From Nemertoderma westbladi (taxonomy: Eukaryota; Animalia; Xenacoelomorpha), in contig JAUCBJ010008647.1 in NCBI GenBank assembly GCA_032718475.1, positions 26,939-90,938 on the forward strand: a stretch of 64,000 bases of DNA. Direction: 5' to 3'. Positions within the stretch are counted from its first letter, which is position 1; each line of letters opens with the position of its first letter. The translations under genes were made by a program, and so were the position numbers. Below, one piece after another: positions 9,001 to 56,862 of this stretch. The notes beneath the pieces were generated by a model, which worked only from the letters and a program-made list of their open reading frames with translations, did no database searches and was not told the DNA's origin.

Positions 9001-9575
9001 ATAATTAGTAAATAATAACAGACAGAAAGACAGTCACCTGTACTAATTAGTAAATAATAACAGACAGAAGGACAGTCACCTGTAATAATTAGTAAACAAT
9101 AACCTACAGAAGGACAGTCACCTGTAATAATTAGTAAACAATAACAGACAGAAGGACAGTCACCTGTAATAATTAGTAAATAATAACAGACAGAAAGACA
9201 GTCACCTGTAATAATTAGTAAATAATAACCTATAATTAGTAAACAATAACCGATAGAAGGACAGTCACCTGTAATAATTAGTAAACAATAACAGACAGAA
9301 AGACAGTCACCTGTAATAATTAGTAAACAATAACAGACAGAAGGACAGTCACCTGTAATAATTAGTAAACAATAACCTATAATTAGTAAACAATAACAGA
9401 CAGAAAGAAAGACAGTCACCTGTAATAATTAGTAAACAATAACCTACAGAAGGACAGTCACCTGTACTAATTAGTAAATAATAACAGACAGAAGGACAGT
9501 CACCTGTAATAATTAGTAAACAATAACCTACAGAAGGACAGTCACCTGTAATAATTAGTAAACAATAACAGACCG
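1..9575. repeat. 42-bp tandem satellite, block 1 (GTCACCTGTAATAATTAGTAAACAATAACAGACAGAAGGACA) with a 21-bp half-unit variant (CCTATAATTAGTAAACAATAA)
   Basis: Directly visible tandem array; the 14-aa period of the spurious minus-strand ORFs equals 42 bp. Confidence 0.98.
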
Positions 9576-10136
9576 TGTTAGCTTATTCAATTCCGCTAAC
9601 ACCCCACAAAGTAAGCCGTTAAGCAATATTGGGAGCACGAGGTTGATTACCCAACCTCGTGCCACCCCGACAAAGTGGGAAGGAGAAACGCACAATAGGG
9701 GTCAGGGGCCATACCCCTGACAGAGAGAGAATAGCAGGAGTGAGGGGAAACACTCCAAAGGGCGCCAACAGGGATATTAGCCAATGGGGGAAGGCACCGG
9801 CTAGGTAGTGTAACGACGGCCAAACCGTGCAATATATATTATTAGGTACCATGTTACTGTAATCAGTTATCTCATTGTATTAGTCGGTTAGCTAGGGTAG
9901 AGCGGAGACTTCTAAGACCGTCCTCGCCTACCACCATTTTATCTGTACATACTGTAATAACTCTTTGTATTTCAACCATCTATACTGTATCCATTTTATA
10001 CTGTACCCATTACATTATACATATATCGGAGAATCAATAACATCAGAACTCTTAGACTCTTTTCACATTCACACGGCGGGGACGCGTACTTATAATAACC
10101 GCGGATAAACCGGGATCCTCCTTGGATCCCGTCACA
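9576..10136 (+). repeat. 5' LTR of BEL copy 1 (561 bp, TG...CA)
   Basis: TGTTAGC...GGATCCCGTCACA ends match the LTR ends of copies 2 and 3; TATA-like AATATATATT near 9831. Confidence 0.92.
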
Positions 10137-12026
10137 GTCTTAGAATTCCAGCCAGCTACCGATCTAAAGTAAAAGATGAGCGACGTAACGCCAACGCGGA
10201 CCCCGGACGAAGAACTAACGATCCGCGAGGCCGCGACCAGACGGTATAGGCCTACGACGCCGGACCCATCGGAAACGGGTCATCCGGCAGTTCAGGATGA
10301 GGGGGGCCATCTGGAGCCAGAAGTCGAGTCGAGAGGAGGGGGAGTCGAGTTGAGAGAAGGTGAGGGCGAGTTGGAAGGAGAAAGAGACGAGTCGACACAC
10401 GACGACGGTCGACATGCCAATGTCGCCGGCCAGCCACAGGCCGAGGGCGACGGACGGCCCACCGGGACAGCAACGGTGGGGCCGCCGGTACGACGTCGGA
10501 CCCGGAGAGATGGAGGAGAGGTCGGCGACGAGGACGTCGGGGTTTCTGATCGACTTCGATGGGCCTACAACGCGACCCGGAAGATACTTAAGGAGGCCAA
10601 GGAGGGGGCGAGGATAGACGAGGTAAAGTTGACAAAAGGACTAGGTGAGTCGGATAAACATTTTAGTTATCTAATGCGCTTCGGGCAGAGAGAACTGGCC
10701 AAGGAGAGAGTGAGAGGGGTTGCCGAGGAACTGTGTGATTTATGGCGGTGTAGGGGTATGCAACCTAGCGTAGTGTACATAGGGCCATACTTAGTCGATG
10801 CCCGGGGTATAAAATTAGTGGGTTGGAGGAGACCTGAGGAGGGCGAATCCGAGGTTAACCCCGAGGATTCGGTCTCATCGGTCGGAGGGAATTCCAGTTC
10901 CGGGAGGCGGGGGAGAGTTAGTAGGACGGGAAGGTGGAGGGAATCCGTCACAACCGATAAGTCTGCTACATCCTCCGTAAAAGGAAGACGGGTGAGGGAA
11001 ATAAACGCGGTGTACCATCTCGATCTGATAGCGCAGGGCCAGAGAGAGGTAGAGAGACAGTTAGAGGAGGGGAAAGCGCTATTAGAGAAAGAGATGGAAC
11101 TGATTAAAGAGACCGGAGAGAGGGCCGAGAGAGCCGCGAGAAGCTTTAGGGAGAGTGAGGAAATAGGGAGGAAGGAACAAGAGGAGCGTGAGGCGAGAGA
11201 GGAAAGTGAGCGTAAAGAGCGCAAGGCTGAACGTAAAGAGCGCGAGGCGAGAGAGGATAAGGAGCGTAGGGAGTGTGAGGCGAGAGAGGAAAGTGAGCGT
11301 AAAGAGCGCAAGGCGGAACGTAAAGAGCGCGAGGCGAGACGAACGGAGAGAATTGAGAGAGAGAAAGAACTGGCCGAACAGAGCGCGCGGGAGAGTCGGG
11401 AAATGATAGCAGACGGGAGGCGTATGCGGGATGGTTTACATGCCCGCCTAGGGGGGTTAATTCAGTACCAAACCAGACAGCAGCGCATACTGAAATTGGC
11501 GCGATTGGGGTTGTCAGAGAGTGAGGCTGGGTCGAGTGCTTTCGAGGAGCCAAGGGCCGAGGAAACATTTATTAATACCCCACTTACAGGAACCGCACGA
11601 CAGACCCGAGACTGGTGTAACCGTACGGGCGGGGGGGGGGGGGGGGGGGGGGGTAATAATAATACAACAGTAGACGACGTTAATATTAATAGTACCGTAT
11701 TGGATAACTCTAACCAAACTTTTATTGCAGGAAATATTTTACCTAGTAGTAGTAATTTAAATTTAAATCCGAATGATTCTAATATTAATGTAGGAAATAA
11801 TTATAATATTAATGTAGTTACGCAAAATAATCCAAATAATCTAAATAATAATCTGAATTCGAATTTACAAGATAATTCAAGTAACGCAATTGCGCAAAAT
11901 AATTCGAATAACTTTATTTTGAATGAACAAAATAATTCCGTTTCTAATTTGGGTGCACAAAATAATTTAACTGGGGTGGAGGATTTAATTGATTTAACCA
12001 ATAACGGTACCTGTGGTGCTATTAAT
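9576..12026 (+). mobile_element. BEL/Pao LTR retrotransposon copy 1: 5' LTR plus gag N-terminus, 3'-truncated
   Basis: Starts TGTTAGC; LTR and gag are homologous to copy 3 (38624-36280, minus); sequence switches back to satellite at 12027. Confidence 0.92.
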
Positions 12027-12044
12027 GTCACCTGTAATAATTAG
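10176..12044 (+). pseudogene. gag: Truncated gag N-terminal region (Glu/Arg coiled coil, Asn-rich tract) that runs into satellite
   Basis: ORF is homologous to the copy-3 ORFs 37657-38007, 36733-37209 and 35637-36755; the last codons are satellite-derived. Confidence 0.85.
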
Positions 12045-15000
12045 TAAATAATAACAGACAGAAAGACAGTCACCTGTAATAATTAGTAAACAATAACAGA
12101 CAGAAGGACAGTCACCTGTAATAATTAGTAAACAATAACAGACAGAAAGACAGTCACCTGTAATAATTAGTAAATAATAACAGACAGAAAGACAGTCACC
12201 TGTAATAATTAGTAAACAATAACAGACAGAAGGACAGTCACCTGTAATAATTAGTAAACAATAACAGACAGAAGGACAGTCACCTGTAATAATTAGTAAA
12301 CAATAACAGACAGAAGGACATTCACCTGTAATAATTAGTAAACAATAACAGACAGAAGGACAGTCACCTGTAATAATTAGTAAATAATAACAGACAGAAG
12401 GACAGTCACCTGTAATAATTAGTAAACAATAACAGACAGAAGGACAGTCACCTGTAATAATTAGTAAATAATAACAGACAGAAAGACAGTCACCTGTAAT
12501 AATTAGTAAACAATAACAGACAGAAAGACAGTCACCCGTAATAATTAGTAAACAATAACAGACAGAAGGACAGTCACCTGTAATAATTAGTAAACAATAA
12601 CAGACAGAAGGACAGTCACCTGTAATAATTAGTAAATAATAACAGACAGAAGGACAGTCACCTGTAATAATTAGTAAATAATAACAGACAGAAAGACAGT
12701 CACCTGTAATAATTAGTAAACAATAACAGACAGAAAGACAGTCACCTGTAATAATTAGTAAACAATAACAGACAGAAGGACAGTCACCTGTAATAATTAG
12801 TAAACAATAACAGACAGAAGGACAGTCACCTGTACTAATTAGTAAACAATAACAGACAGAAAGACAGTCACCTGTAATAATTAGTAAACAATAACAGACA
12901 GAAAGACAGTCACCTGTAATAATTAGTAAATAATAACAGACAGAAGGACAGTCACCTGTAATAAGTAGTAAACAATAACAGACAGAAGGACAGTCACCTG
13001 TAATAATTAGTAAACAATAACAGACAGAAGGACAGTCACCTGTAATAATTAGTAAACAATAACAGACAGAAGGACAGTCACCTGTAATAATTAGTAAATA
13101 ATAACAGACAGAAAGACAGTCACCTGTAATAATTAGTAAACAATAACAGACAGAAAGACAGTCACCTGTAATAATTAGTAAACAATAACAGACAGAAGGA
13201 CAGTCACCTGTAATAATTAGTAAACAATAACAGACAGAAGGACAGTCACCTGTAATAATTAGTAAACAATAACAGACAGAAGGAAATAACAGACAGAAGG
13301 ACAGTCACCTGTAATAATTAGTAAACAATAACAGACAGAAGGACAGTCACCTGTAATAATTAGTAAATAATAACAGACAGAAAGACAGTCACCTGTAATA
13401 ATTAGTAAACAATAACAGACAGAAGGACAGTCACCTGTAATAATTAGTAAACAATAACAGACAGAAGGACAGTCACCTGTAATAATTAGTAAACAATAAC
13501 AGACAGAAGGACAGTCACCTGTAATAATTAGTAAACAATAACAGACAGAAGGACAGTCACCTGTAATAATTAGTAAACAATAACAGACAGAAGGACAGTC
13601 ACCTGTAATAATTAGTAAACAATAACAGACAGAAGGACAGTCACCTGTAATAATTAGTAAACAATAACAGACAGAAGGACAGTCACCTGTAATAATTAGT
13701 AAATAATAGCAGACAGAAGGACAGTCACCTGTAATAATTAGTAAACAATAACAGACAGAAGGACAGTCACCTGTAATAATTAGTAAACAATAACAGACAG
13801 AAGGACAGTCACCTGTAATAATTAGTAAATAATAACAGACAGAAAGACAGTCACCTGTAATAATTAGTAAACAATAACAGACAGAAAGACAGTCACCTGT
13901 AATAATTAGTAAACAATAACAGACAGAAGGACAGTCACCTGTAATAATTAGTAAACAATAACAGACAGAAGGACAGTCACCTGTAATAATTAGTAAACAA
14001 TAACCTACAGAAGTACAGTCACCTCGCCTGTACCAATTAGTAAACAATAACAGACAGAAGGACAGTCACCTGTAATAATTAGTAAATAATAACAGACAGA
14101 AAGACAGTCACCTGTAATAATTAGTAAACAATAACAGATAGAAGGACAGTCACCTGTAATAATTAGTAAACAATAACAGACAGAAGGACAGTCACCTGTA
14201 ATAATTAGTAAACAATAACAGACAGAAGGACAGTCACCTGTAATAATTAGTAAACAATAACAGACAGAAGGACAGTCACCTGTAATAATTAGTAAATAAT
14301 AACAGACAGAAGGACAGTCACCTGTAATAATTAGTAAACAATAACCTACAGAAGTACAGTCACCTGTAATAATTAGTAAATAATAACAGACAGAAGGACA
14401 GTCACCTGTAATAATTAGTAAATAATAACAGACAGAAAGACAGTCACCTGTAATAATTAGTAAATAATAACAGACAGAAAGACAGTCACCTGTAATAATT
14501 AGTAAATAATAACAGACAGAAAGACAGTCACCTGTAATAATTAGTAAATAATAACAGACAGAAAGACGGTCACCTGTAATAATTAGTAAACAATAACAGA
14601 CAGAAGGACGTCACCTGTAATAATTAGTAAAAAATAACAGACAGAAGGACAGTCACCTGTAATAATTAGTAAATAATAACAGACAGAAGGACAGTCACCT
14701 GTAATAATTAGTAAATAATAACAGACAGAAAGACAGTCACCTGTAATAATTAGTAAATAATAACAGACAGAAAGACAGTCACCTGTAATAATTAGTAAAT
14801 AATAACAGACAGAAAGACAGTCACCTGTAATAATTAGTAAACAATAACAGACAGAAGGACAGTCACCTGTAATAAATAGTAAACAATAACAGACAGAAGG
14901 ACAGTCACCTGTAATAATTAGTAAACAATAACAGACAGGAGGACAGTCACCTGTAATAATTAGTAAACAATAACAGACAGAAGGACAGTCACCTGTAATA

Positions 15001-18000
15001 ATTAGTAAACAATAACAGACTGAAGGACAGTCACCTGTAATAATTAGTAAACAATAACAGACAGAAGGACAGTCACCTGTAATAATTAGTAAATAATAAC
15101 AGACAGAAAGACAGTCACCTGTAATAATTAGTAAACAATAACAGACAGAAGGACAGTCACCTGTAATAATTAGTAAACAATAACAGACAGAAGGACAGTC
15201 ACCTGTAATAATTAGTAAACAATAACAGACAGAAGGACAGTCACCTGTAATAATTAGTAAACAATAACAGACAGAAGGACAGTCACCTGTAATAATTAGT
15301 AAATAATAACAGACAGAAAGACAGTCACCTGTAATAATTAGTAAATAATAACCTATAATTAGTAAACAATAACAGACAGAAGGACAGTCACCTGTAATAA
15401 TTAGTAAATAATAACAGACAGAAGGACAGTCACCTGTAATAATTAGTAAACAATAACCTACAGAAGTACAGTCACCTCGCCTGTAATAATTAGTAAACAA
15501 TAACAGACAGAAGGACAGTCACCTGTAATAATTAGTAAATAATAACAGACAGAAAGACAGTCCCTGTAATAATTAGTAAACAATAACAGATAGAAGGACA
15601 GTCACCTGTAATAATTAGTAAACAATAACAGACAGAAGGACAGTCACCTGTAATAATTAGTAAATAATAACTGACAGAAAGACAGTCACCTGTAATAATT
15701 AGTAAACAATAACAGATAGAGGGACAGTCACCTGTAATAATTAGTAAACAATAACAGACAGAAGGACAGTCACCTGTAATAATTAGTAAATAATAACTGA
15801 CAGAAAGACAGTCACCTGTAATAATTAGTAAACAATAACAGATAGAGGGACAGTCACCTGTAATAATTAGTAAACAATAACAGACAGAAGGACAGTCACC
15901 TGTAATAATTAGTAAACAATAACAGACAGAAGGACAGTCACCTGTAATAATTAGTAAACAATAACCTACAGAAGTACAGTCACCTCGCCTGTAATAATTA
16001 GTAAACAATAACAGACAGAAGGACAGTCACCTGTAATAATTAGTAAATAATAACAGACAGAAAGACAGTCCCTGTAATAATTAGTAAACAATAACAGATA
16101 GAAGGACAGTCACCTGTAATAATTAGTAAACAATAACAGATAGAAGGACAGTCACCTGTAATAATTAGTAAATAATAACAGATAGAAGGACAGTCACCTG
16201 TAATAATTAGTAAATAATAACAGACAGAAGGACAGTCACCTGTAATAATTAGTAAACAATAACAGACAGAAGGACAGTCACCTGTAATAATTAGTAAACA
16301 ATAACAGACAGAAGGACAGTCACCTGTAATAATTAGTAAACAATAACAGACAGAAGGACAGTCACCTGTAATAATTAGTAAACAATAACAGACAGAAGGA
16401 AATAACAGACAGAAGGACAGTCACCTGTAATAATTAGTAAACAATAACAGACAGAAGGACAGTCACCTGTAATAATTAGTAAATAATAACAGACAGAAAG
16501 ACAGTCACCTGTAATAATTAGTAAACAATAACAGACAGAAGGACAGTCACCTGTAATAATTAGTAAACAATAACAGACAGAAGGACAGTCACCTGTAATA
16601 ATTAGTAAACAATAACAGACAGAAGGACAGTCACCTGTAATAATTAGTAAACAATAACAGACAGAAGGACAGTCACCTGTAATAATTAGTAAACAATAAC
16701 AGACAGAAGGACAGTCACCTGTAATAATTAGTAAACAATAACAGACAGAAGGACAGTCACCTGTAATAATTAGTAAACAATAACAGACAGAAGGACAGTC
16801 ACCTGTAATAATTAGTAAATAATAGCAGACAGAAGGACAGTCACCTGTAATAATTAGTAAACAATAACAGACAGAAGGACAGTCACCTGTAATAATTAGT
16901 AAACAATAACAGACAGAAGGACAGTCACCTGTAATAATTAGTAAATAATAACAGACAGAAAGACAGTCACCTGTAATAATTAGTAAACAATAACAGACAG
17001 AAAGACAGTCACCTGTAATAATTAGTAAACAATAACAGACAGAATGACAGTCACCTGTAATAATTAGTAAACAATAACAGACAGAAGGACAGTCACCTGT
17101 AATAATTAGTAAACAATAACCTACAGAAGTACAGTCACCTCGCCTGTACCAATTAGTAAACAATAACAGACAGAAGGACAGTCACCTGTAATAATTAGTA
17201 AATAATAACAGACAGAAAGACAGTCACCTGTAATAATTAGTAAACAATAACAGATAGAAGGACAGTCACCTGTAATAATTAGTAAACAATAACAGACAGA
17301 AGGACAGTCACCTGTAATAATTAGTAAACAATAACAGACAGAAGGACAGTCACCTGTAATAATTAGTAAACAATAACAGACAGAAGGACAGTCACCTGTA
17401 ATAATTAGTAAATAATAACAGACAGAAGGACAGTCACCTGTAATAATTAGTAAACAATAACCTACAGAAGTACAGTCACCTGTAATAATTAGTAAATAAT
17501 AACAGACAGAAGGACAGTCACCTGTAATAATTAGTAAATAATAACAGACAGAAAGACAGTCACCTGTAATAATTAGTAAATAATAACAGACAGAAAGACA
17601 GTCACCTGTAATAATTAGTAAATAATAACAGACAGAAAGACAGTCACCTGTAATAATTAGTAAATAATAACAGACAGAAAGACGGTCACCTGTAATAATT
17701 AGTAAACAATAACAGACAGAAGGACGTCACCTGTAATAATTAGTAAAAAATAACAGACAGAAGGACAGTCACCTGTAATAATTAGTAAATAATAACAGAC
17801 AGAAGGACAGTCACCTGTAATAATTAGTAAATAATAACAGACAGAAAGACAGTCACCTGTAATAATTAGTAAATAATAACAGACAGAAAGACAGTCACCT
17901 GTAATAATTAGTAAATAATAACAGACAGAAAGACAGTCACCTGTAATAATTAGTAAACAATAACAGACAGAAGGACAGTCACCTGTAATAAATAGTAAAC

Positions 18001-19625
18001 AATAACAGACAGAAGGACAGTCACCTGTAATAATTAGTAAACAATAACAGACAGGAGGACAGTCACCTGTAATAATTAGTAAACAATAACAGACAGAAGG
18101 ACAGTCACCTGTAATAATTAGTAAACAATAACAGACTGAAGGACAGTCACCTGTAATAATTAGTAAACAATAACAGACAGAAGGACAGTCACCTGTAATA
18201 ATTAGTAAATAATAACAGACAGAAAGACAGTCACCTGTAATAATTAGTAAACAATAACAGACAGAAGGACAGTCACCTGTAATAATTAGTAAACAATAAC
18301 AGACAGAAGGACAGTCACCTGTAATAATTAGTAAACAATAACAGACAGAAGGACAGTCACCTGTAATAATTAGTAAACAATAACAGACAGAAGGACAGTC
18401 ACCTGTAATAATTAGTAAATAATAACAGACAGAAAGACAGTCACCTGTAATAATTAGTAAATAATAACCTATAATTAGTAAACAATAACAGACAGAAGGA
18501 CAGTCACCTGTAATAATTAGTAAATAATAACAGACAGAAGGACAGTCACCTGTAATAATTAGTAAACAATAACCTACAGAAGTACAGTCACCTCGCCTGT
18601 AATAATTAGTAAACAATAACAGACAGAAGGACAGTCACCTGTAATAATTAGTAAATAATAACAGACAGAAAGACAGTCCCTGTAATAATTAGTAAACAAT
18701 AACAGATAGAAGGACAGTCACCTGTAATAATTAGTAAACAATAACAGACAGAAGGACAGTCACCTGTAATAATTAGTAAATAATAACTGACAGAAAGACA
18801 GTCACCTGTAATAATTAGTAAACAATAACAGATAGAGGGACAGTCACCTGTAATAATTAGTAAACAATAACAGACAGAAGGACAGTCACCTGTAATAATT
18901 AGTAAATAATAACTGACAGAAAGACAGTCACCTGTAATAATTAGTAAACAATAACAGATAGAGGGACAGTCACCTGTAATAATTAGTAAACAATAACAGA
19001 CAGAAGGACAGTCACCTGTAATAATTAGTAAACAATAACAGACAGAAGGACAGTCACCTGTAATAATTAGTAAACAATAACCTACAGAAGTACAGTCACC
19101 TCGCCTGTAATAATTAGTAAACAATAACAGACAGAAGGACAGTCACCTGTAATAATTAGTAAATAATAACAGACAGAAAGACAGTCCCTGTAATAATTAG
19201 TAAACAATAACAGATAGAAGGACAGTCACCTGTAATAATTAGTAAACAATAACAGATAGAAGGACAGTCACCTGTAATAATTAGTAAATAATAACAGATA
19301 GAAGGACAGTCACCTGTAATAATTAGTAAACAACAACAGACAGAAGGACAGTCACCTGTAATAATTAGTAAATAATAACAGACAGAAAGACAGTCACCTG
19401 TAATAATTAGTAAACAATAACAGACAGAAGGACAGTCACCTGTAATAATTAGTAAATAATAACGTACAGAAGGACAGTCACCTGTAATAATTAGTAAATA
19501 ATAATAGACAGAAGGACAGTCACCTGTAATAATTAGTAAACAATAACCTATAATTAGTAAACAATAACAGACAGAAAGACAGTCTCCTGTAATAATTAGT
19601 AAACAATAACAGACAGAAGGACAGT
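12027..19625. repeat. 42-bp satellite, block 2, containing a 3116-bp higher-order tandem duplication
   Basis: Same unit; near-identical variant patterns are offset by 3116 bp (ORF pairs 13259/16375, 14583/17699, 15532/18648). Confidence 0.97.
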
Positions 19626-20153
19626 TGTGAGTGTATTCAATTCTGCCTCACCAACCCCCATAAAGTGGGCCAGCGAGACCCTTAAGCAATATTGGGAGCA
19701 CGAGGTTGATTACCAATCAACCTTGTATCACCCCAATAAGTGGGGCAACAATAGGCCCCAAGAGGACACACACACAATGGGGGTCAGAGGTTACACCTCC
19801 GGGAGGGAGAGAGAGACAGCAGCGGGGGGAAGTACACCCAGGGAGATGGGAAGGTGACAAGTGAGTTATTAGCCAATGGGGGGAAGGCATCGGCTGAGTA
19901 GTGTAATGCGGCCAACCGGTGCAATATATTACCATGTCGGTGTATCATTCATTCACTTGTAGTAAGTCAGTTAGTTAGGACGGTACCGGAACTCTAATTA
20001 CTGTGACGGGATCCACGGAGGATCCCGGTTTATCCGGTTTCTAATCTACGCGTCCCCGCCGTGTGTGTGAAAGGTAGAAAGAGTTATTGATCGGTGTATA
20101 TAGTTCCAAAGGTATAATAGTATATGATAATGGTTGTTATAATATAAGTGTAC
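19626..20153 (+). repeat. 5' LTR of copy 2 with its 3' 152 bp inverted (20002-20153)
   Basis: 19626-20001 matches 24359-24734; 20002-20153 is the reverse complement of 24784-24935. Confidence 0.93.
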
Positions 20154-22939
20154 CGGCAGACTGCAGGACATACTGTAGGCCTTACTGCACATACTATTAT
20201 AGGCCATGCTGGGAGAGATAGAGTAGGCGATAGGGTAGTGCGAACGACGGGATTAAACCCGGAAGTCGCGGAGTACATACCGGTAGGTAGGCAAGAAGTG
20301 GGTAGGCCTATATCGGTACAGCAGCATGACTATAATACACAGGGACATAACATATATCCAGGGAAGGGGAGAGTTATTGCTGATAGATGTATGGGCCCCA
20401 ATATATTAACATCAACCCCAGTACCAAACATTCCGGTGGGGGGGGGGGGGGGGGGACAGGGTGACATTCCCCCATTCCAATATCAACAATATACTCGAAC
20501 AGCAACGAGAACACCTAACCCCCTGGACGAGAACAGGTCTTGCGACACGGAAATATGGAGGGGGCCGTTACCCCCAATGATATATCCGACGCAACAAGTT
20601 AGATCAACAGCAGATAGGACGAACGGATCGCACCCAACGGCAGAATCTGTACAGCATCCATCGAACCCATTGGAAGCACAGGCGATGGGAATGGCGACGC
20701 TAATCGATGCATTAAAGACCAGGATCGAGTTACCACCAGTCGAGCCATTTAAATTCGATGGAAGTAGGCCGGAAGAATACCTGCAGTTTCGGCGCATGTA
20801 CAGTAACGAGATATTAAGTAAGAACTTGATGCAGGTGGAGTGCCTAAAATATCTACAGGTGTATACAGGAGGCCCAGCATACGACATCGTGAGGCAGTAC
20901 CAGAGCATCGAGGGCGGCTTCACGACAGCATGGCGGGCGCTAGACAGGGAATACGGACACCCGGCCAAGATCATCCGGCAAACCCTGAGAGGTATAACAT
21001 CGGGTGGCCTACAGGACAACCCCGTTAGCATAAAGACCTTTGCGAACAAGGTCGAGAAGGCGTTAATCGTGTTAAAGACGCTAGACGCGCCATACGAACT
21101 CAACGCATCTAATAACATCACCACAATAGCGCAGGCACTGCCGATCTGGCTGCGGAGCAAGTGGAGGAAGATCGCCTTCTCCACTCGAGAGAAGAAAGGT
21201 GCGGAGCCGGGGCTGGAGGAAATGTCAAACTTCCTCAACTACGAAGCCGAGTTGATAACAGACCCAGTCTATAGTGAGGATAGTTTGGGGAAGGCGCCAA
21301 AGACCGAATACAACAGGCCTGGACCCGAACATAATCCGACAGATCCATTCTCGAGAGTAAGACAGTCGCTACCACACGCGGCCACACAGGGGGCTACAAG
21401 CCCACAGTTAGCTGGGAGTAGGGCCACACCGTGGCAGGGACAGAAAGAAAATAACACCATAAATAAACATAATCCCAATATACCCAGTAGGCCGAGTACA
21501 GATAACCAAAACACTAAATCGGTAGATATAAACCTACGCGCAATACGTGAAGGACTATATAGGGAACGCTATAATCCAGGATTCAAATTTCAATTACATC
21601 GGGACGGAACCCATAAGACCATGAGTTCTAAGCACTGGCAAGCGTTGCCCAAACAAGATCGTATAGCCTACACAGACGCAAATGGACTATGTCATCGATG
21701 TGTGGTAGAAGGACACAGATCCGGAGAGTGTAGAGAAACAGCGACAGGAGATAACGAGACTGGAGGCCAAACAATGGCTACAAGCACGACAGTGGCAAGA
21801 AAGAAGAGAAAAGTACTACTCGGGGTAGTACTGGTGAAGATATCAGGAGAGGGCGGTCGATCAGTAACGACATTAATGCTGGTCGACAGCGGAGCAGCCT
21901 TCACGCTGGTGGAGAACTGGGTGGCCGAAGAGATAGGGCTAAAGACGAGGCCGAATAGAATGGCGGTAACCACCGTCTCAAGTAAGGATGAGGTCCTGGA
22001 GATGAGGACGGGACGGTGCAGGATATCAGCGATTGCACCGGGATGCAACTATGGGGCGACGATCGACCCCATCCATGTGATAGAATCGATAAACATCAAC
22101 GCCAGGCGACCAACCAACATCGAAGTCGAACAATATACAGTACATTCCTGGACGGTATCGATTTCTCAATACCAGAGGTGGACGTTAGGAAGGTATCCAT
22201 TATAGTAGGAATGGACTGCCCGACGGCCCACGAGAGAACAAAGACGGTCTTCGGCGAAGACAGGCAGCGGGACCCGACGGCGATCCTCACGCCGTTCGGA
22301 TGGACGCTTAGCGGCCCAGTTAAAACCAAGATTCCATCCAGAGTGACGGAGACATCAGGGTGCATGTTACCAGGCACCGTAGACACGGAGGTTGAAGAGG
22401 AGAAACAGGAGATAGTAGAGCCAGACAGGGAAGTAACAGTAAGAGAGTGGGCGGAGGAGAATGGATTTCCCAGCAAGTATCGGTATGGAGATGGAGAGGA
22501 GTGGACGGCGAGATGTCCGGAGGAGTGTCCGGTGGAGTGTCAGGAGGACAATAGTCCAGAGCAGTGTCTAGAGGAGTGTCCAGAGGAGTGTCCGGAAGAG
22601 ACGCCGGTCCGGTTGAGAGGCATACCGACAAGGGGGAGCTCGAGTAGGAAGACAGGATGGAAAGGGATAGGACTATTGTTGTACCTTCTGTTTTGCCTGT
22701 TCTTTCACTTTCTATTCATTCTGCCGCCGGGAGATAACAAGGTGGGAGGTGGCATTTTGATGCCAGGAGACGAGAAAGTTAAGAAGGCGGTGGAGAGACC
22801 CGATTTCAGGGTGGCAGAAGAGAGAGAACCAATTCCTGGTGAGTTGGAATTGGTGGAGAGAGTGTGGCAAAGAATAAGAGGACGTATAAAGGAGGCAGTG
22901 GGAGAGTGCCTACTGGAAAAAGGGGCACTTCAGAGTTAA
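20148..22939 (+). pseudogene. gag core + aspartic protease, frameshifted near 22140; the pol position holds an acidic/Cys-rich and hydrophobic segment
   Basis: FKFDGSRPEEYLQF gag motif, CHRC..GH...C knuckle, LVDSGAAFT protease motif, TPFGWTLSG; ORFs 20148-22205 and 22016-22939. Confidence 0.85.
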
Positions 22940-23169
22940 GTCGTCCAATATTTTGGACTGAGGGGGGTGGGAATGAGGGCGAGACGCCCTTCCCACACAA
23001 ATAATTATTTAATTAAAATAAATAACAAAATAATTAAATAATAAGATAAGTAGAAGGTAGAAAGTAATAGTTAGAAGAGATAGTAAGTAGTAGCAAGGAG
23101 TAGTAGAAAGTAGTAGTAGAGTGTTAGAAGGTGGCAGGGTAAGGGAGTGTGGTATATTAACATGCCACG

Positions 23170-23810
23170 AGTAGTAGCAGAGGGGTTGTGGGCACCGGAA
23201 GCGCCACGTAGAAAGTAGTAAGAGAGGGGTTGTGGGCACCGGAAGCGCCACATAGAAAGTAGTAAGAGAGGGGTTGTGGGCACCGTAAGTGCCACGTAGA
23301 AAGTAGTAAGAGAGGGGTTGTGGGCACCGGAAGCGCCATGTAGAAAGTGGTAGCAGAGAGTGGTTGTGGGCACCGCAAGCGCCACATAGATAGAGGTAGT
23401 AGAGTAGTAGAGAGGGCACATAGGGTGCCAGGTAGTAGAGTAGTAGAGAGGGCACATAGAGTGCCAGGTAGTAGAGTAGTAGAGAGGGCACATAGGGTGC
23501 CAGGTAGTAGAGTAGTAGAGATTGGCACATAGGGTGCCAGGTAGTAGAGTTAGAGGTAGTAGAGTAGTAAAGAGGGCACATAGGGTGCCAGGTAGTAGAG
23601 TAGTAGAGAGGGCACATAGGGTGCCAGGTAGTAGAGTAGTAGAGACGGGCACATAGGGTGCCAGATAGTAGAGTGGTTGTGGGCACCGCAAGCGCCATGT
23701 AGATGGAGGAAGTAGTAGTAGAGTGGTTGTGGGCACCGCAAGCGCCACGTAGATGGAGGTAGTAAGCAGAGTGGTTGTGGGCACCGCAAGCGCCACGTAG
23801 AAACTAGTAA
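23170..23810 (+). repeat. Internal tandem arrays (44-bp and 36-bp units) in the 3' region of copy 2
   Basis: GGGCACC recurs at 23190, 23234 and 23278; GGGCACA recurs at 23414 and 23450. Confidence 0.9.
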
Positions 23811-24358
23811 GTAGAGTTAGAGTTAGTAGAGAGTTAGAGGGTTTTAGTTAGAGCTAGTAGAGTTAGAGTTAGTAGAGAGTTGGAGAGTTCTAGTAGAGTT
23901 AGGAGTTAGTTAGAGTTAGAGAAGTTAGATAGTTAGATAGTTAGCAAGTTAGACCTTAGATAAGGTAGATAGTATGATAGCACAGGGGTAGCATTAGAGA
24001 TTAGGGCCTTAGGGAGTGGCAGAGAGTAGAGAGGAGTATGGAGAGGAGCTGCTGGCGAGAGGCAGAGCAGGCGAGTGCGATTCAGGTGTGGGGAGAGAGT
24101 AAGAGCGGAGTTAGAGCGGAGTTAGAGTGGTGAGAGTGTTGGGGAAACAAAAGTTGTGTGAAAGAAGCGCACGATCGGCCCGACACGAGACGCCAGAGGG
24201 TAGTGACATCATACCCATAGGGAGCAGCCTGGAAAGCCGACTCCAAGAAAAAATAACTCCACCCCACACCCGATAATAGATCGAGTTCCAGCGGAATTGA
24301 AGCGCACTTAGAGGTTGATGCTATCTTCTCTCCGGGAAGATAGCATGGGGGGGGGGAG

Positions 24359-24935
24359 TGTGAGCGTATTAAATTCCGCCTCACCAACCCCCATAAAGTG
24401 GGCCAGCGAGACCCTTAAGCAATATTGGGAGCACGAGGTTGATTACCAATAAACCTTGTATCACCCCAATAAGTGGGGCAACAATAGGCCCCAAGAGGAC
24501 ACACACACAATGGGGGTCAGAGGTTACACCTCCGGGAGGGAGAGAGAGACAGCAGCGGGGGGAAGTACACCCAGGGAGATGGGAAGGTGACAAGTGAGTT
24601 ATTAGCCAATGGGGGGAAGGCATCGGCTGATTAGTGTAATGCGGCCAACCGGTGCAATATATTACCATGTCGGTGTATCATTCATTCACTTGTAGTAAGT
24701 CAGTTAGTTAGGACGGTACCGGAACTCTAATTACCGTCACCGTCATTCCTGTCATCTGCCAATAGTACATATATCATTTACCAGTACACTTATATTATAA
24801 CAACCATTATCATATACTATTATACCTTTGGAACTATATACACCGATCAATAACTCTTTCTACCTTTCACACACACGGCGGGGACGCGTAGATTAGAAAC
24901 CGGATAAACCGGGATCCTCCGTGGATCCCGTCACA
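24359..24935 (+). repeat. 3' LTR of BEL copy 2 (577 bp)
   Basis: Follows the PPT; TGTGAGC...GTCACA; followed by the TSD. Confidence 0.95.
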
Positions 24936-25100
24936 ACAGTCACCTGTAATAATTAGTAAACAATAACCTATAATTAGTAAACAATAACAGACAGAAAGAC
25001 AGTCTCCTGTAATAATTAGTAAACAATAACAGACAGGACAGTCACCTGTAATAATTAGTAAACAATAACAGACAGAAGGACAGTCACCTGTAATAATTAG
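24936..25100. repeat. 42-bp satellite, short block between BEL copies 2 and 3
   Basis: About 4 units visible. Confidence 0.95.
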
Positions 25101-25692
25101 TGTGACGGGATCTGCGGAGGATCCTGGTTTATCCGGTTTTTGGTTCCTAGTTTACGCGTCCCCACCGTGCGTGAAAGATATAAAGAGTTCTGGGTTGTTG
25201 ATCAATCGATGTATATAAGTTCGGGATATAATATAATAGAGATAATAGCACAAATGGTTGATGTATGATGTAATGTACCGGTAGGTGATATGTACTGGTG
25301 ACGGGGGGCGGAGACGGTAACTAGACCTAACTGTAACTAACGGTACTGTCCTAACTAGCTGACTTACTACAAGTGAATGAAATATTGCATGGACCGGTAA
25401 TATATTGCACAGTTGGCCATATTGCTCTACCCAGTCGATGCTTCCCCCCAATTGGCTAATATCCTAATTGTCGCCCCTTTACCTTCCCTGGAGTGTTTCC
25501 CGTTACTCCTGTTATTCCCTCTCTCTCTCAGGGGTGTAACCTCTGACCCCTTTGTGCGTATGTCCTCCGGGGTTTCCTTGTCCCCACTTTATTGGGGTGG
25601 TACGAGGTTGATATTGGATATCAACCTCGTGTTCCCAATATTGCTTAAAGCTCACTTTATGGGGCTGGTTAGTGGAATTGAATACGCTAACA
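25101..25692 (-). repeat. 3' LTR of BEL copy 3 (592 bp)
   Basis: Direct repeat of 38044-38624; adjoins the PPT. Confidence 0.95.
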
Positions 25693-26399
25693 CTCCCCCC
25701 CATGCTATCTTCCCGGTAAGAAGATAGCATCCACCTCTAGTGCGCTACAATTCCACTGGATCTCGACCTAGTATCGAGTGTGGGATGGAACTATTTTTAT
25801 TTTTTTCAGAGCCAGTTTTCCAGACCGCCCCCTATGGGTATGATATTGCTACCCTGTCTACCTGGCGTCCCGTGTTGGGCCGATCATGCGCTCCTTTCAC
25901 ACGACTTTTGTTTCCCCAACACTTTCGCCACTCTAACTCCACTCTATTCTCACCCTGACTCTCGCTACTTCTCCTCACCTCCGCTCTAACTTTCGGACTT
26001 CCCTGTCCCTCACTCGCCCTCTTGTTCCTCCCCCCCCACACTTGAGTCGCACTTGCACTCTCTCCGCACTTCGCACTATCGCTCCATCGCTCGACCCCTC
26101 CTTGGCTAACTCACTCATCTCTGACGAGTCCCATCCCCCTCTCCTGTGCCGTCGCACTCAGGAAATGTGAAGTCGTCTAGTGTCTCGTTCGTCATAGTCA
26201 GTCATCCCCCGGTCCAGTAGCTAATTGGAAAAAGGTTGAGTGACTATAGTACTTACTTCAATTATATTTTGCTAAACTAATAATGATTACTACGTACGTA
26301 CCTACTAATTGCACTTTTCAATTGTTTAAATTACTTAAATTTATACTTAGGAGTTCGCACGTCTCGCGTGGTGCCTTCCAGGCATATTACTCCGAAGTC

Positions 26400-28573
26400 C
26401 TAGTTCGTTCCACCAGCCTTTGGGAACCACCTCAAGTCTTTCCCTTTGTCTTCCCCCTCCCTGGGTCGTTTCCTGGTCACTGCCGCTCCTCTGGTCTTGT
26501 CTGCTTTCTGGCTTCTGACTCTCGCCGCCACCTCCTTGCTGATCCCGGTCGTCGACTCCTTGGGTGCCGGTGTTATTAGCTCCCGGTATCGCTTCGCGGG
26601 TGGCCCCTCCGAGTGGCCCTGTTGTCTCCCCCTGATGGCGTCCCATAGGATCATCTTCATTGCCCGCGGCACATGCTCCGCCAAGAAATCCCTAAACTCT
26701 CCTCTACTCTGTGGCGTCCACCTATACAAATACCTCTGCGTATTTATCACTCCGGCATATGATGCCGCCGTCGCCACTTTCTGGTAGGTAAACGGAAGCC
26801 TCCGTTTGATAATCTCCATGTGAGCCTCCTGATTGATGTTAAAGAAGCCCCACCGGAACTCCTGGGCCTTCATACGTTGCCGAGTCATCGCCCCGACGTC
26901 GGCCCATTCCTCGAAGATCCTAAACTTCTCTTCGTCGTCCATCCAGTCGCACTGGCGTCCGTAATGTCCCCGAAAGTTACACTTCGAACATCGGTTATGC
27001 AACCGTGGTCACGCCCCCATCCTGTGGCTCGACTCACGGCAATAGAGACAACTAGTCCCTTTCTGGACCCGGTACAAACAGCTCCTTTCCTGATGGGTCT
27101 GTCTCCCACAGTAATCACAGCTGAGCACCAATGTCTCCCGCCCTACGTCGTCTTTCGTCCCAAGCGATCTCCGTGGTCTGTGGAGTCGCTGATAAGCAAA
27201 CTTCCGGACGTTAGCGTCCCTATCTACGTCGATCTCCTCGCCCCTCTCGGGCATCGTCTCCCCGAATACTACCCTAGAGACTCCCCCGAACTCCCTGATG
27301 AAGTCCAACGAAGTTCGTCCAAGCCCGCTTGTTCCTCGAAGCCGTAGCTCTGTGCCCTAGCTTCCTCCTCCCTTTCTTCTGCTTCTCTCCTTTCCCGTCT
27401 GGCGACTTCTTCCAGTCGCTTCGCCTCTCGCCTATCCGTCTCTAGCTGCTCCCATCTCTGACACGGCGTATCCACCTCCCCGTCTACCAGATGTCGGCTG
27501 TTATAGTACACCGACTCGCCCTTCAGCCCCGGGTGGTCTACCAGACCCTCGAAAGCCGTCTTAAAGGCTCTTCTGTAGTTTAGGGGTGATCCCGATAATA
27601 GGAATGCCGTTGGTTCCCTCTCAATAATCACGGTCATGAATAGGTTAAGCAAACCTATCATTATCCAGTCCTCCTGTAGGATATATCGCTTCTGATATAC
27701 CTTTATAGCTCCTCTCCGGAATTGATACACCTCTTGTCTCCCTGGCCTCGCTCCCCACTTCAGTGAGTTCGCCAAGTCTGCTCCGTACTCCTCTCTGAAC
27801 TTGCCCCAGTCCATCAGTTTGTGACACATGAGCCCCATTAACTGGCCCATCGCCACTGCCCCGCAATGTCCTGTGGTCTCTATTAGTCCCAATCCGTCCG
27901 GCGCTGTCATAGCCATGTACACCGTCTGCGTATCCAGAAGGTTGGGGGTGTCCGGACCGATGATCCTCTCCGCGTCGTCGCGAATCGCCGATCCCACTTT
28001 TGTCCTCGACTTCTCTCTCACTAGTACTTGCACTGCCTTCGGCAGCCGGTTTAACTTCGGCCCATCCTTCTTTCCATACGTTCCTAGATCGAATAGGAAT
28101 ATGTCCCCATTTGGCACAGCCAAATGTAGGAGTATGGTTCTGGCTGACGCCGCCGATCCTCTCCTCGAACCCTCCTCGTCTTCCATGGTCCCCTCATCGT
28201 CCAGGACCATATACCCTTCTCTGCTGACGGACTCTACGAACCTCTTCCAATCCTTCCTCGGTGGATCCCTTGCGTACTTCGGAATCCCGAACTTCGCTTC
28301 GTCTCCTTTTATCACGTAGTGGAAATGCTCGAAGATCGCGTTGTCCAGCGACAGCGTCCCGTAGGTCCCGACCAGCCACTGTTCGTGCACCTCCCTGAAA
28401 TGGTCCTGTAGCGCTCGCGCTGCGTGACCCCTCTCTAACCGTTCGTAGTATCCCCTCGTTCTCTCTTCCGGATGCCTCTTGGTGAAATCCACCAGTATCT
28501 CCTTTCCTCCTAGCTCCGCCTTTCTCTTTCGCACAAGTTTGCTTGCCATCTCGAACTTTACCCGATCGCTCAC
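26400..28573 (-). pseudogene. Extra ORF3: DEDDy 3'-5' exonuclease (WRN/EXD2-like) + coiled coil + three CCHC knuckles; one frameshift (about 27310-27340) and one in-frame TGA (27009-27011)
   Basis: Motifs VLDDEG, LLHLAVPNGDIFLFDL, LPKAVQVLV..TKVGSAIRDD, LLDTQ and YQKRYILQED; knuckles CDYCGRQTHQERSC, CLYCRESSHRMGA* and CSKCNFRGHYGRQC. Motif recognition by eye. Confidence 0.75.
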
Positions 28574-29049
28574 CCGTTGGGTGGTGCCTTACCAAGGCGC
28601 AGTAGGGTGAGTGATAGGTTAAGGTGGTTTATCTCAGTTCGATGGCCTATCTCCCTCTGGATTACTAAGTTAATTAGCCTATTTCCACTGCTTGATTTCT
28701 GTAGCTACCAAATTGTACCTAAATTGTGAATTTTGTCAGTTACTTTTATTATGTTCCAGAATTTTCTTGCTGCTGTTACCATAATTTGTCAATTTCTTAG
28801 CTCTATCCTATTTTGGTATTTTTAATCTAATTCAATCCTACCATTGTGCTGTTACTTACTATTGCCTATGGATTATTCTATTTCATAATCCACATTCTGG
28901 CCTACTCTGTGGGCTTGTGCAGTACAACAGTATGCGTCGCGCGGCCTACACGATTTATCCAGCTGTACTCATATGCCCCCTCTCGCTACTAACTACTAAC
29001 TAATGTCTATACTATATATATATATCCCTCTACCTCTTACTCTTACAAA

Positions 29050-29560
29050 CCGGTACTACGTACCCTCTTACTAACTTCTAACTCTCTCTAACTAACTAAC
29101 TAATCGGTACTGCGTACCCTCTTACTAACCTCTAACTCCACTAACTAACTAATCGGTACTACGTACCCTCTTACTAACCTCTAACTCCCTTAACTAACTA
29201 ACGGTACTACGTACCCTCTTACCAACCTCTTACTTTCTCCAACTAACTAACGGTACTATGTACCCTCTTACCAACCTCTAACTCTCTCCAACTAACTAAC
29301 GGTACTATGTACCCTCTTACCAACCTCTAACTCTCTCCAACTAACTAATGGTACTACGTACCCTCTTACTAAACTCCAACTTCTGCCTACTGATGGTACT
29401 ACGTACCCTCTTACTAACTAACTTCTGCCTACTGATGGTACTACGTACCCTCTTACTAACTAACTTCTGCCTACTGACGGTACTACGTACCTTCTTACTA
29501 ACTAACTTCTGCCTACTGACGGTACTACGTACCCTCTTACTAACTAACTTCTATCTACTG
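29050..29560 (-). repeat. Internal tandem array (about 42-45 bp units) between pol and ORF3 of copy 3
   Basis: Repeated GGTACTACGTACCCTCTTACTAAC. Confidence 0.9.
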
Positions 29561-29687
29561 ACTTTCGCTTCTTATTATTTTTTATTTTATTTTTATTTTT
29601 ATTGTGTAGGAAGGGCGTCTCGCCCTCAATCCCACCCCCCTCAGTCCAAAACTTGGACGACTAAACTACACTAAAAACCACACTAGT

Positions 29688-32600
29688 TCAAGGTGCCCCC
29701 TCTAGTAGACAGCATTTTCCTACAGCCCTCCTGTAGGTCTTTCTGTCTTTTGCACCTATCTTTCCACCTATTCGCACTTCTACCGATCGGACTCTTCCAT
29801 CCTCATCGGAGTAAGTGCCCACAACTCTCGCCAACCGCCATTGGTTGTTGATGATGGTATCATCCGTGACGATCACCAGATCACCCTCCTTTAGCTCTCT
29901 GTTCGTGTTCCTCCACTTACTTCTTCTGTGTAATGTGGGCAGATATTCCTCGACCCACCTCCTCCAGTATTCTGCGCTTATCGCCTTAGCGACTTTCCAA
30001 CTCTGGCGGGAGTGTATGTCGTCTGGGTCTACACCCCGCATGTCGACTGTCGCCGGCCTCTCCATTAGAAAGTGACTGGGCGTCAGCACGTCTAATGACT
30101 CAGGGTCATCATTCTCTGGATATAGCGGTCTGCTATTAATGATACCCTCACACTTTGCCAGTACTGTCCTTAGTACGTCCTCTGTAACCATGTGGGTGTT
30201 CATCAGCTTCGTCATCAGACGTTTCGAACTACCCAATAATCTCTCGACGCATCCTAGGGTATGCGGAGCATACGGCGTCCTCCTCTCCCACTTTACTTGT
30301 CGCCTTCTCATGGCCGCCCTGACTTCCTCCCCTTCCAGGATATCCAAGGCCTCCGCCATCTCGTTCTCCGCCCCCACAAAGTTGGTCCCGCTGTCAGAAT
30401 ACAGTACTGCGATTGTCCCACCTTTGCGGTCTCTAAATCTTTCTAAAGCATTAATGAATGCTGATGCGGTTGCATCTTGGGCGAGTTCTATTCCTACCGC
30501 CCGCGTGTTGTTACATACGAAGATGATACCATAGCGTTTCTCCGTGTGCCGCATCACCTTAATCTTTATCGGCCCGAACATATCCACACTGCAATGCGTA
30601 AATGGCGGGTCGTGCTGTCTTACTCTACTGGCCGGTAGTGGCGCCATTTCCTGTATGGCCCGTTCCTTCTTCTCCCGTCGGCAGCTCTGGCACTGCCCCA
30701 CTACCGCCTTTACCTTCTTCCTCAACTGTTTGACCCAAAAGGTCCTTCTTATCTCCGTGAGGGTTCGGTTGGTGCCCCCGTGCAATATCGATTTGTGGGA
30801 GTCCCAGATAATCTGGTGGACTATCGGCGATCCTGTGGGAATGATGATGGGCTTCGGTGGTACGACGATACTGTTGTTGTATCCCACCCTAGAGTTCATT
30901 ACTAGGATCCCGTCGTCATTAAGTTGTGGTGACAGCGTGATCAGCTCGCTGTCCCGCCGGAGATGCTGTTGCTTACCAACGCGTTCCACCTCGTCGCCAT
31001 AGTTCTTCCTCTGCTCGTAGTGGATGACTGCTTTGGCCGCTCCTTCCAGGTCTATTGTCGTTCTAATCTTCACGTCTTTACCAACTCCCCTGAGGAAATT
31101 CCCGAAGGCTCTCCAGTATGCCACTAACTTCTTGGTCTTGTACCAACTAGAACTGTAGCTAAGGAGTTTATCCGTCGGGTTATCGCACAGTTCTCCTGGT
31201 TTTGGTTGCACGTCCCTTATCTCCCTCACCATCTGGGAGTATATCTCCTCTCCCTCTGAATCTCCCTCTTCTCCTTCTGACACTACTTCTCCTGAGCCCG
31301 GGTCCACCTTTCTCATCGGCGGCCAGGCCTCCCTATCGCTCAGAAACTGTGGCCCGTGTTGCCACAATACTTCCTTCTTCAAGAAAGTGTGGCGTACCAC
31401 GCCCCTCGATAACAATTCCGCTGGGATCTCGTCCGTTGGGCAGTAGTGCCACCTTTCCAGTTTTGTGGTCGCCCTTATTTCGTCCACTCTATTCGCGACG
31501 AATATAGGGTATCTCGTCCTTTCGTTGTGTAGCCAACCGAGCACTACCATGGAATCCGTCCAGTAGTGTGTTTCCACTATGTTGGGAATAGCGTCCACTA
31601 AGTAGGGTATGGCCCTAACTCCTAATCTCGCAGCTGTCAACTCGAGTTTCGGAACTGATGCTGAGTCTGGTGGCGTCGACTTCGCTTTACTGAATGCGAG
31701 TCTGGGCTTGTGAGCCCCCTCTCGTTGTACTAAGTAGAGTGCCGCTCCATATGCCTCTAATGACGCATCGGAGAACATATGTAGATCCAGATTCGTCTCC
31801 CCATCCGGGAAATATACACGCGGCATGCTGTATGTTCCCATCTGCTCTAAACTCTCTGTCCACTTGTTCCACTGCTTACTAATCTCTTCTGGGACCTCTG
31901 CGTCCCACTCGTCCTTTAATTTGTATACTCTCTTGAGTATCTGTTTCCCCGTGACTAGTAATGGGGATGCTAGGCCTAGGGGATCGTATATCCTCGCTAT
32001 ATATGACACATAGCCCCTCTTTGTGTGGATACCTGCTCCCTCCTGACTCAATTGGTATTTTAACTCATCTGTCTCTCTGTTCCACACGATTCCCAGTGCC
32101 TTCTGTTGAGACTCTATCCTCTTGTTCGCCATGTCCTGCCCCTTGGCTGTTGTGGGATTATCCATGGTCGATCCTGGTCTCTCGTCTTTTATTGCCTCGA
32201 TAAATTCCTTCGAACTGGATTGGAATTTGGTTAGGTTGAAGCTGGATCCTTTAAGGATGTCGCGAACCTCGCGCCCTGTGTCCAGTAGCTCCTTAACCGT
32301 ATTTCCAGACTCCATCCCGTTGTCTACGTAGAAGCCGCGTCGAATCATATCGACGGCTTTGGCGCTGAACTTATCTTCCTTCCCTGCTACCGTATCTCTT
32401 ACGGCCATAGTCGTTGTAAACGAAGACGACTTGGCTCCCATATTCTGTAATACCATCTTATACATTGGTATGGTCGACGGTTCCTCATCGCCGTCGTACC
32501 ATAGGAAGCGTTGGCTGTCGCTATCCTCTCCCGTTACACGGACTTGGTTGAACATGCCTTCAATGTCGCAGGTGAAAGCGTGTTTGCCATTCCTGAATCT

Positions 32601-38007: not shown

Positions 38008-38043
38008 CGTAGCGTAGTCAGGCAGTAGTTGCTATCTAGTTAC

Positions 38044-49240: not shown

Positions 49241-49561
49241 CAAATTTGTAATTACATAATTGTAACTAGATGAGGGTCTTTATTGCATATGCGTTTTACA
49301 AATTGTTCATTAAAACTTACTAATTGTGGTGATAATATATGCCTCGCCCCACGGATATCCTGGGACGAGAGGGGAGAGACCTACCGGTGTTGGACAGTCA
49401 GTATGGCGGTGTTAGTCAGTCAGTACCACCAGTTTATCTAGGCTACTTACTGCATGCCCTGACCGGTCCTCAGAGGACCCTATTATATATGATCACAGTA
49501 TCTGCTCCAGACAAAGGTTTTGTTCGTCTGCTGCCTCGCAGCAATAGTAGATACACCCACA

Positions 49562-49579: not shown

Positions 49580-49590
49580 AATTTGGGCCC

Positions 49591-56830: not shown

Positions 56831-56862
<32 letters not shown>

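Follow-up and report, generated by a model that had tools for sequence, protein, structure and literature searches.

How did the 5' LTR of an inserted retroelement come to stop at an internal 9-mer and then continue as its own end, turned around? The element concerned, copy 2, is one of three related LTR elements (copies 1, 2 and 3) in the window, by which we mean the whole 64-kb stretch of DNA that was analysed. A 42-bp satellite makes up the first 19.5 kb of the window; segments of it lie at 1-19625, 24936-25100 and 38625-39470. All three elements are inserted in this satellite, each at a different position of the unit. Copies 2 and 3 stand tail to tail across a gap of 165 nt, and copy 1 ends within gag at about 12030, where it is joined to satellite with a 2-nt overlap. 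The copies and their principal parts are as follows.

9576-10145, plus strand: 5' LTR (9576-10136) and PBS of copy 1, with 9-mer TTCTAAGAC at 9910-9918 and complementary PBS at 10137-10145
9576 to about 12030, plus strand: extent of copy 1, truncated
19626-24935, plus strand: copy 2, without pol, flanked by a 5-bp target duplication
25101-38624, minus strand: copy 3, a BEL/Pao element with pol, identified by LTR, PBS, domain and target-duplication evidence
38044-38624, minus strand: 5' LTR of copy 3, with 9-mer TCTAGTTAC at 38260-38268 and complementary PBS at 38035-38043
25101-25692, minus strand: 3' LTR of copy 3, target duplication ATTAG

Judged by its sequence, the element family is BEL/Pao (Belpaoviridae), with DUF1759, a Pao peptidase A17, an integrase placed after RT/RNase H, and DUF5641. 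In Pfam searches, the ORFs of copy 3 carried DUF1759, Peptidase_A17, an integrase zinc finger and DUF5641, and copy 2 had only DUF1759 and the protease among the BEL/Pao domains. The Pol of copy 3 had 98 homologues, all BEL/Pao proteins, the best of them 33-34% identical over the full length and nearly all with PF05380. The end features of BEL/Pao elements (TG...CA LTRs, a polypurine tract and a short target duplication) are likewise present. No chromodomain, the criterion for the Tf1/sushi chromovirus lineage, was matched by Pfam in the element ORFs of the window.

Several other features of the window were recorded. Between pol and the 3' LTR of copy 3 (26400-28588, minus strand) lie extra ORFs of 439 and 202 aa without a Pfam match, which account for the element's length of 13.5 kb. 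The 3' LTR of copy 3 has 15 nt (25326-25340, minus strand) where the 5' LTR has 4, immediately 5' of the 9-mer, and this replacement looks, from its letters, as if templated from adjacent sequence. The other differences between the two LTRs of copy 3 also cluster near the 9-mer, and one of them, at a CpG, makes the helix of the 5' LTR 12 bp long. Farther along, an inverted 53-bp satellite with 155-nt inverted outer ends (47262-58738) surrounds both an integrase ORF (51461) and one for an endonuclease-RT (53897), and may be a foldback-type element with nested insertions. An ORF with RT, RNase H and an integrase zinc finger (61111-62916, minus strand) belongs to a gypsy-type element.

The fold-back structure of copy 2 is real in the window: the end of the LTR is flipped and about 2.6 kb is deleted. 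Its parts, in order, are listed below.

19621-19625, plus strand: left target-site duplication ACAGT, in register with the 42-bp satellite unit
19626-20001, plus strand: normal left part of the 5' LTR (U3 and the probable start of R), 371/376 identical to the 3' LTR
19924-19931, plus strand: TATA-like box of putative function, about 65 nt before the 9-mer, with the same motif in copies 1 and 3
19953-19992, plus strand: possible longer-primer stretch; for its homologues in copies 1 and 3, imperfect pairing with the leader behind the PBS is predicted
19993-20001, plus strand: 9-mer TCTAATTAC, the predicted 3' end of the primer, with junction 1 within it or at its end
20002-20156, minus strand: final 155 nt of the LTR in inverted form, 154/155 identical to 24781-24935
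20040-20049, minus strand: internal PBS look-alike GTAGATTAGA, the complement of the 9-mer plus one extra base, inside the inverted piece
20155-20157, no strand: junction 2, inverted LTR end to mid-gag, with a 1-2 nt overlap; 2,649 nt including the PBS are skipped relative to copy 3
20157-22368, plus strand: remaining gag-protease region with DUF1759 and an aspartyl protease, interrupted by frameshifts
22369-22939, plus strand: pol-replacing segment of about 570 nt without a match to copy 3, through which the frame continues
24335-24358, plus strand: polypurine tract before the 3' LTR
24359-24935, plus strand: intact 3' LTR of 577 nt, with the 9-mer at 24726-24734 and the PBS look-alike at 24888-24897
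24936-24940, plus strand: right target-site duplication ACAGT, a perfect match to the left one

The first-pass annotation of this locus had described a 5' LTR that is normal up to the 9-mer and then runs backwards from its very last base for 152 nt. The normal part was confirmed: 19626-20001 aligned with 24359-24734 of the intact 3' LTR at 371 of 376 positions and ended in TCTAATTAC. The start of the inverted piece at the last base of the 3' LTR (24935) and its 152 perfect nucleotides were also recovered, but its true length is 155 nt (154/155 identical, through 20156). Missing from the 5' LTR are 46 nt (24735-24780). Gag restarts at 20157, which corresponds to position 3231 of the copy 3 element; since the LTR of copy 3 ends at 581, 2,649 nt are skipped, in agreement with the roughly 2.6 kb estimated earlier.

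The two LTRs of copy 2 differ at 6 positions in 531 nt. Divergence from the 3' LTR was 5/376 in the normal part and 1/155 in the inverted part (Fisher p 0.68), so that LTR divergence is uninformative as a clock for the two parts. Copy 3 was rejected as donor of the inverted piece, to which it is 80-82% identical, as against 99% for copy 2's own LTR. At 20154, the inverted piece differs from copy 2's own 3' LTR and agrees with contigs of other samples, which indicates that it was not copied from that LTR. As a separate observation, the product of 22369-22939 shows Cys-Pro-Glu-Glu repeats and a hydrophobic stretch, and the replacement of pol by this segment may mark a non-autonomous subfamily.

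What is special about the point at which copy 2 turns around emerges from its neighbours. The nine bases that follow the LTR of copy 1 are the complement of the 9-mer TTCTAAGAC within that LTR; in copy 3, the nine post-LTR bases are the complement of its own 9-mer, TCTAGTTAC, at the homologous LTR position. A co-varying, self-complementary PBS is thus found in both copies that retain a PBS, with letters that differ between them: the longest match of each PBS is 9 nt within its own LTR but no more than 5 nt within those of the other copies. A complement of the PBS occurred anywhere in composition-matched Markov LTRs in 42 of 20,000 cases for copy 1 and 37 of 20,000 for copy 3. When the LTR of copy 2 was compared with the complement of the copy 3 PBS, position 376 was the single best of 569 positions (8/9; next 6/9). 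The complementarity in copies 1 and 3 thus places the flip of copy 2 between the predicted primer and the PBS. Taken together, the sequences make it probable that this BEL/Pao family, outside Tf1/sushi, primes minus-strand synthesis with its own RNA.

The post-LTR sequences of copies 1 and 3 start with GT, lack TGG and are unlike one another. No tRNA gene was found in the 64-kb window and no tRNA match in the LTRs scanned, and a search of copies 1 and 3 for a spliced primer gave no GT..AG split match. The bases before the 9-mer of copy 1, which we took to have a tRNA-like look, had no Rfam tRNA match, and a tRNA-like nature was rejected. Half-tRNA priming could be an alternative, with a PBS complementary to an anticodon-loop fragment of a host tRNA; half-tRNA primers without TGG exist according to the available part of one source (PMC10886601).

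Four public sequencing runs (X1, X2, X3 and X5) were compared with the window over 19610-20700, and 32 of 6,454 contig pieces and 24 of 375 loose ends were listed. Of 6 runs listed for the stretch, 5, from 3 studies, contain part of it, with a best share of 0.57 and no RNA run among them. On the LTR side of junction 2, X1 record 3 (20079-20156) and X5 record 29 (20037-20156) had no mismatch to the inverted piece through 20156; X2 record 12 ended at 20153, as does the match to copy 2's own 3' LTR. Contigs with intact gag began their alignment at 20156 (X1, X2, X3) or 20155 (X5), and the letters upstream were not GTAC. Contig ends of the LTR type at 20156 and of the gag type at 20156 or 20155 give junction 2 an overlap of 1-2 nt. 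The jump into gag had been placed at GTAC; the alignment ends move it to 20156/20157, and GTAC (20150-20153) was discarded as a microhomology because gag-type contigs lack it upstream, so that it is not common to both sides.

At junction 1, X1 record 2 and X2 record 11, from two studies, aligned from exactly 19993, preceded by more than 100 unlike letters, which is what an intact U5 and PBS would be expected to give. Compared over about 100 nt, these contigs differ from copy 2 at 7 and 6 positions, and in one X5 type the match is limited to 19998-20001; for this reason, the identity of the lost PBS as the exact complement of TCTAATTAC is probable, not certain. The internal PBS look-alike of copy 2 agrees with such a predicted PBS. 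The earlier proposal that copy 2 had held a third co-varying pair is accordingly favoured by the contigs that align from 19993 and by the look-alike, but weakened by the differences and by the X5 type. None of the listed contigs spans either junction; these samples apparently lack copy 2, because X1 shows another letter at 20514 and 20628 in all of its depth, and they are hence uninformative about the junctions as such. Two joints of the 'opposite strands' kind were also seen in contigs, at 19995-20064 (X2) and 19998-20066 (X1), and may be ordinary diverged LTRs. A search with a degenerate LTR-end pattern gave 0 matches in viral contigs and 0 in metagenome contigs.

Folding was predicted for the native LTR-leader segments of copies 1 and 3. 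As RNA, the 9-bp helix had a mean probability of at least 0.68 in 19/20 length settings for copy 1 and of at least 0.79 in 15/20 for copy 3, the lowest predicted mean across these folds being 0.07. The ten bases 3' of the 9-mer can form a 10-bp helix with the conserved GG(C/T)GGGGACG near the LTR end in all three copies, and a conserved hairpin is predicted to close the LTR. Predicted pairing of the 40 nt upstream of the 9-mer with the leader was equalled in 3/1000 shuffles for copy 1 and 55/1000 for copy 3, and cross-pairing between copies 1 and 3 (1x3) nearly equals their own pairing strength. Given a TATA-like box about 65 nt upstream and the potential of the 40 upstream nucleotides to pair with the leader, a capped 5' fragment longer than the 9-mer may serve as primer; the 9-mer would then be the 3' end of this fragment and not the RNA 5' end.

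A PBS look-alike is also present in each LTR, about 50 nt before the LTR end and directly after the conserved GG(C/T)GGGGACGC.

24888-24897: PBS look-alike of copy 2
10086-10095: PBS look-alike of copy 1
LTR position 527: PBS look-alike of copy 3

Without a PBS, which is the situation of the 3' LTR, this look-alike is predicted to pair with the 9-mer, and the folds suggest that it could be a switch that hides the primer copy of the 3' LTR. The look-alike's own pair is the best in 2/3 copies; strict specificity was rejected, since in copy 1 its own pair is not the best.

As DNA, the segment from the 9-mer to the end of the PBS folded into the helix with a mean probability of 0.95 (copy 1) and 0.98 (copy 3). 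With 45 nt extra upstream and an end at the PBS, the values were 0.11 and 0.93, and with 45 nt on both sides they were 0.92 and 0.98. The last arrangement is what a resected or unwound chromosome strand offers, so that a switch after insertion would yield the same product.

We tentatively read copy 2 as a dead BEL/Pao insertion with one template switch between the predicted self-primer 9-mer and the PBS, probably made during reverse transcription. Minus-strand synthesis would have been primed by the element's own RNA, cleaved after the 9-mer. A plus-sense DNA copy of U5 and PBS, ending in the complement of the primer, would have annealed to the 9-mer instead of undergoing the usual second-strand transfer, and this strand would then have been extended through U3. 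It might have arisen by plus-strand strong-stop DNA snapping back on itself, or by the jump of a minus strand, stalled in gag, to primer-linked strong-stop DNA; a variant would be mis-priming by the 9-mer of the 3' LTR. The mid-gag join would have been made by a near-blunt jump or by host end-joining, and the product integrated via its two normal ends with enzymes supplied in trans, as copy 2 lacks pol. Having no PBS, copy 2 would be a one-off dead end. The scar likely records a one-off copying accident, which fits but does not prove tRNA-free self-priming.

The order of the bottom strand in copy 2 is gag (minus sense), U5 (plus sense), PBS and U3 (minus sense). The reverse-transcription reading is supported by junction 1, which lies at the single LTR position that best complements the sister PBS and also at the last base of the LTR. 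In the general scheme of reverse transcription, a DNA 3' end forms at the PBS by itself once plus-strand strong-stop DNA has copied the primer, according to the available parts of two sources (PMC6894440, PMC7197481), so no trimming would be needed and no leader letters would be expected in the product. The junction product of copy 2 contains no leader sequence, and both its outer ends and its 5-bp duplication are intact. We slightly prefer reverse transcription on the grounds that it does without trimming and that the product kept none of the leader. Against it stand the copy 1 helix that falls to 0.11 when 45 nt upstream are included and the strand ends at the PBS, and an inverted piece of 155/201 nt, 46 nt short of full strong-stop DNA; every route through reverse transcription also requires a second rare step. 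The first-pass suggestion of a fossil priming intermediate therefore holds to the extent that the junction lies exactly at the 9-mer/PBS pairing point, but a switch at the DNA level would leave the same letters, and the inverted piece falls short of a full strong-stop DNA. Because any template switch between complements gives these letters, the junction is not independent evidence of self-priming.

Such a DNA-level switch is the possibility that we take most seriously besides. An intact insertion would later have undergone a strand switch or fold-back between the inverted 9-mer and PBS during chromosomal replication or repair, with 155 nt copied in reverse before the strand was rejoined to gag; events of this kind go by the names FoSTeS/MMBIR or fold-back with end-joining. 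Already raised in the first-pass annotation as the alternative, it predicts the same sequence as reverse transcription, and the native single DNA strand with leader folds the helix as well (0.92, 0.98). Junction 2 is near-blunt (1-2 nt overlap), copy 2 is old enough for 6 LTR differences in 531 nt, and damage at the level of the chromosome is seen in its neighbours within the satellite array (copy 1 cut into satellite, the 15-nt replacement in the copy 3 3' LTR), which also counts against reverse transcription. However, in duplex DNA a repeat of 9 bp around a loop of 201 nt makes a weak target, and a resected strand would have to be trimmed to a point exactly inside the PBS, even though leader sequence can also pair with bases farther upstream; no leader letters were kept. 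An improbable alternative leaves the PBS uninvolved: integrase would have joined the opposite-orientation LTR end (...CA) of a second subfamily cDNA, or of the same molecule, after the 9-mer, with a later deletion. Joining at the last base of an LTR is an integrase product, the family is high-copy with siblings that can be identical over the stretch, and TAATTAG precedes the inverted end of copy 3 much as TAATTAC precedes junction 1. Auto-integration inversions are also known (available part of PMC7197481), but those described are circles, in contrast to an insertion whose ends are intact. Neither copy 1 nor copy 2 has a TAATTA-like target, a second event (the deletion) is needed, and integrase would have had to hit by chance the best PBS-complementary position, about 1 in 570 within the LTR. 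Similarly improbable is a chimera of assembly or library with inversion and deletion at short overlaps. A high-copy element within satellite is difficult to assemble, and the junction has no independent read support; nevertheless, the target duplication is intact and in satellite register, the inverted piece at 20154 is unlike copy 2's own 3' LTR but like contigs of other samples, and junction 1 coincides with a biologically special position.

A broader reading goes further than the switch during reverse transcription that we tentatively favour. It takes the junction as a frozen priming intermediate of a BEL/Pao lineage in which self-priming was invented independently of Tf1/sushi, with a capped 5' primer fragment of ~40-50 nt ending in the 9-mer, a look-alike that hides the 3' LTR 9-mer, copy 2 as a failure of this system, and junctions that recur across the family. 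As a whole, we consider this doubtful.

Distant BEL/Pao loci were collected from metagenome contigs, the best 80 of 550 being analysed. A long-range direct repeat was present in 30/80 of these best loci, and 13 loci had a usable-looking 5' LTR end for the PBS self-complement test. A contiguous 10-11-nt complement of the own LTR, 3-4 nt after the LTR, was found in 3/13 (L025:1685-1861; L043:566-911, where the boundary is uncertain; L067:5700-6070), with chance occurrences of 24, 7 and 23 of 2,000, respectively, offsets of 0-4 being allowed. TGG lay within 14 nt in 4/13. A post-LTR complement of 10-12 nt across a canonical GT..AG intron within the LTR was seen in 3/9 loci (L024:6400-6864, L053:1851-2241, L071:500-997), a count that carries no chance control. 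Long-range inverted repeats occurred in 2/80 of the best loci; one locus, L006, has a 201-nt inverted repeat (846-1042 and 4963-5162), 92% alike, upstream of its BEL/Pao pol match.

The scar is a single broken copy and matters as a pointer to its family: BEL/Pao elements are described as tRNA-primed (PMC8742986), yet here the PBS is self-complementary and co-varies. If such junctions recur, they would mark the 3' end of the primer in vivo and would show a cost of self-priming, namely that the end of a strong-stop DNA is able to anneal to its own LTR. Simple genome counts and RNA end mapping could then test how this little-studied family of retroelements primes. In the literature searched, which covered few subscription journals, we found no report of self-priming in BEL/Pao and none of a junction between a 9-mer and an inverted LTR end; the main text of PMC3118150 nowhere mentions primer, PBS, tRNA or target site.

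The present elements match Belpaoviridae (Semotivirus) in DUF1759, Peptidase_A17, the integrase zinc finger, DUF5641, TG...CA LTRs, the polypurine tract and the 5-bp target duplication. The ICTV profile gives tRNA priming with an 18-nt PBS for tRNA-Arg or tRNA-Gly and a length of 4-10 kb (PMC8742986), whereas copies 1 and 3 have a self-complementary PBS of 9 nt, different in each, and copy 3, at 13.5 kb, is longer. Aberrant strand-transfer and auto-integration products, among them the inversion circles from auto-integration in the available part of PMC7197481, are like copy 2 in the deletion of PBS and 5' gag and in an inverted piece that starts at the LTR end. Copy 2 differs in being a linear insertion that has kept both ends and a target duplication, with its switch at a built-in self-complement.

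Strand-transfer deletions occur in retroviral vectors, and fold-back inversion-deletions arise from replication template switching or end-joining. The latter share with copy 2 the inversion at a short inverted repeat and the 1-2 nt join to a distant site, and they are the main rival, from which the sequence offers no distinction.

Tf1, a retrotransposon in which the primer is retained, Tf2 and Tj1 (Tf1/sushi, Ty3/gypsy) resemble the present elements in a PBS right after the LTR CA that is complementary to a short stretch of their own LTR, without a tRNA-type TGG. In the available parts of PMC6317226, PMC4600332 and PMC3601003, Tf1/sushi, Tj1 and Tcn1 are described as self-priming, and TAR copia elements are predicted to be so. 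For TAR (Houba, Osr-1; Ty1/copia) and Tcn1, self-priming was predicted, as here, from PBS-LTR complementarity outside yeast Tf1; unlike here, these are plant Ty1/copia and Ty3/gypsy lineages, and BEL/Pao is not named in the available part of that source (PMC6317226). Tf1 also has a multi-helix 'pretzel' (PMC10085805, available part), which the extra helices predicted here beside the primer helix resemble, and an 11-base primer cut by RNase H (PMC7175516, available part). Unlike Tf1/sushi, the present element is BEL/Pao and not a chromovirus, with a perfect helix of 9 bp, an internal PBS look-alike and a putative primer cleavage; its 9-mer lies about 65 nt behind a TATA-like box and may not be the RNA 5' end, as the upstream bases can pair with the leader. 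On these comparisons of sequence, the family of copy 2 probably works like Tf1 without belonging to Tf1/sushi.
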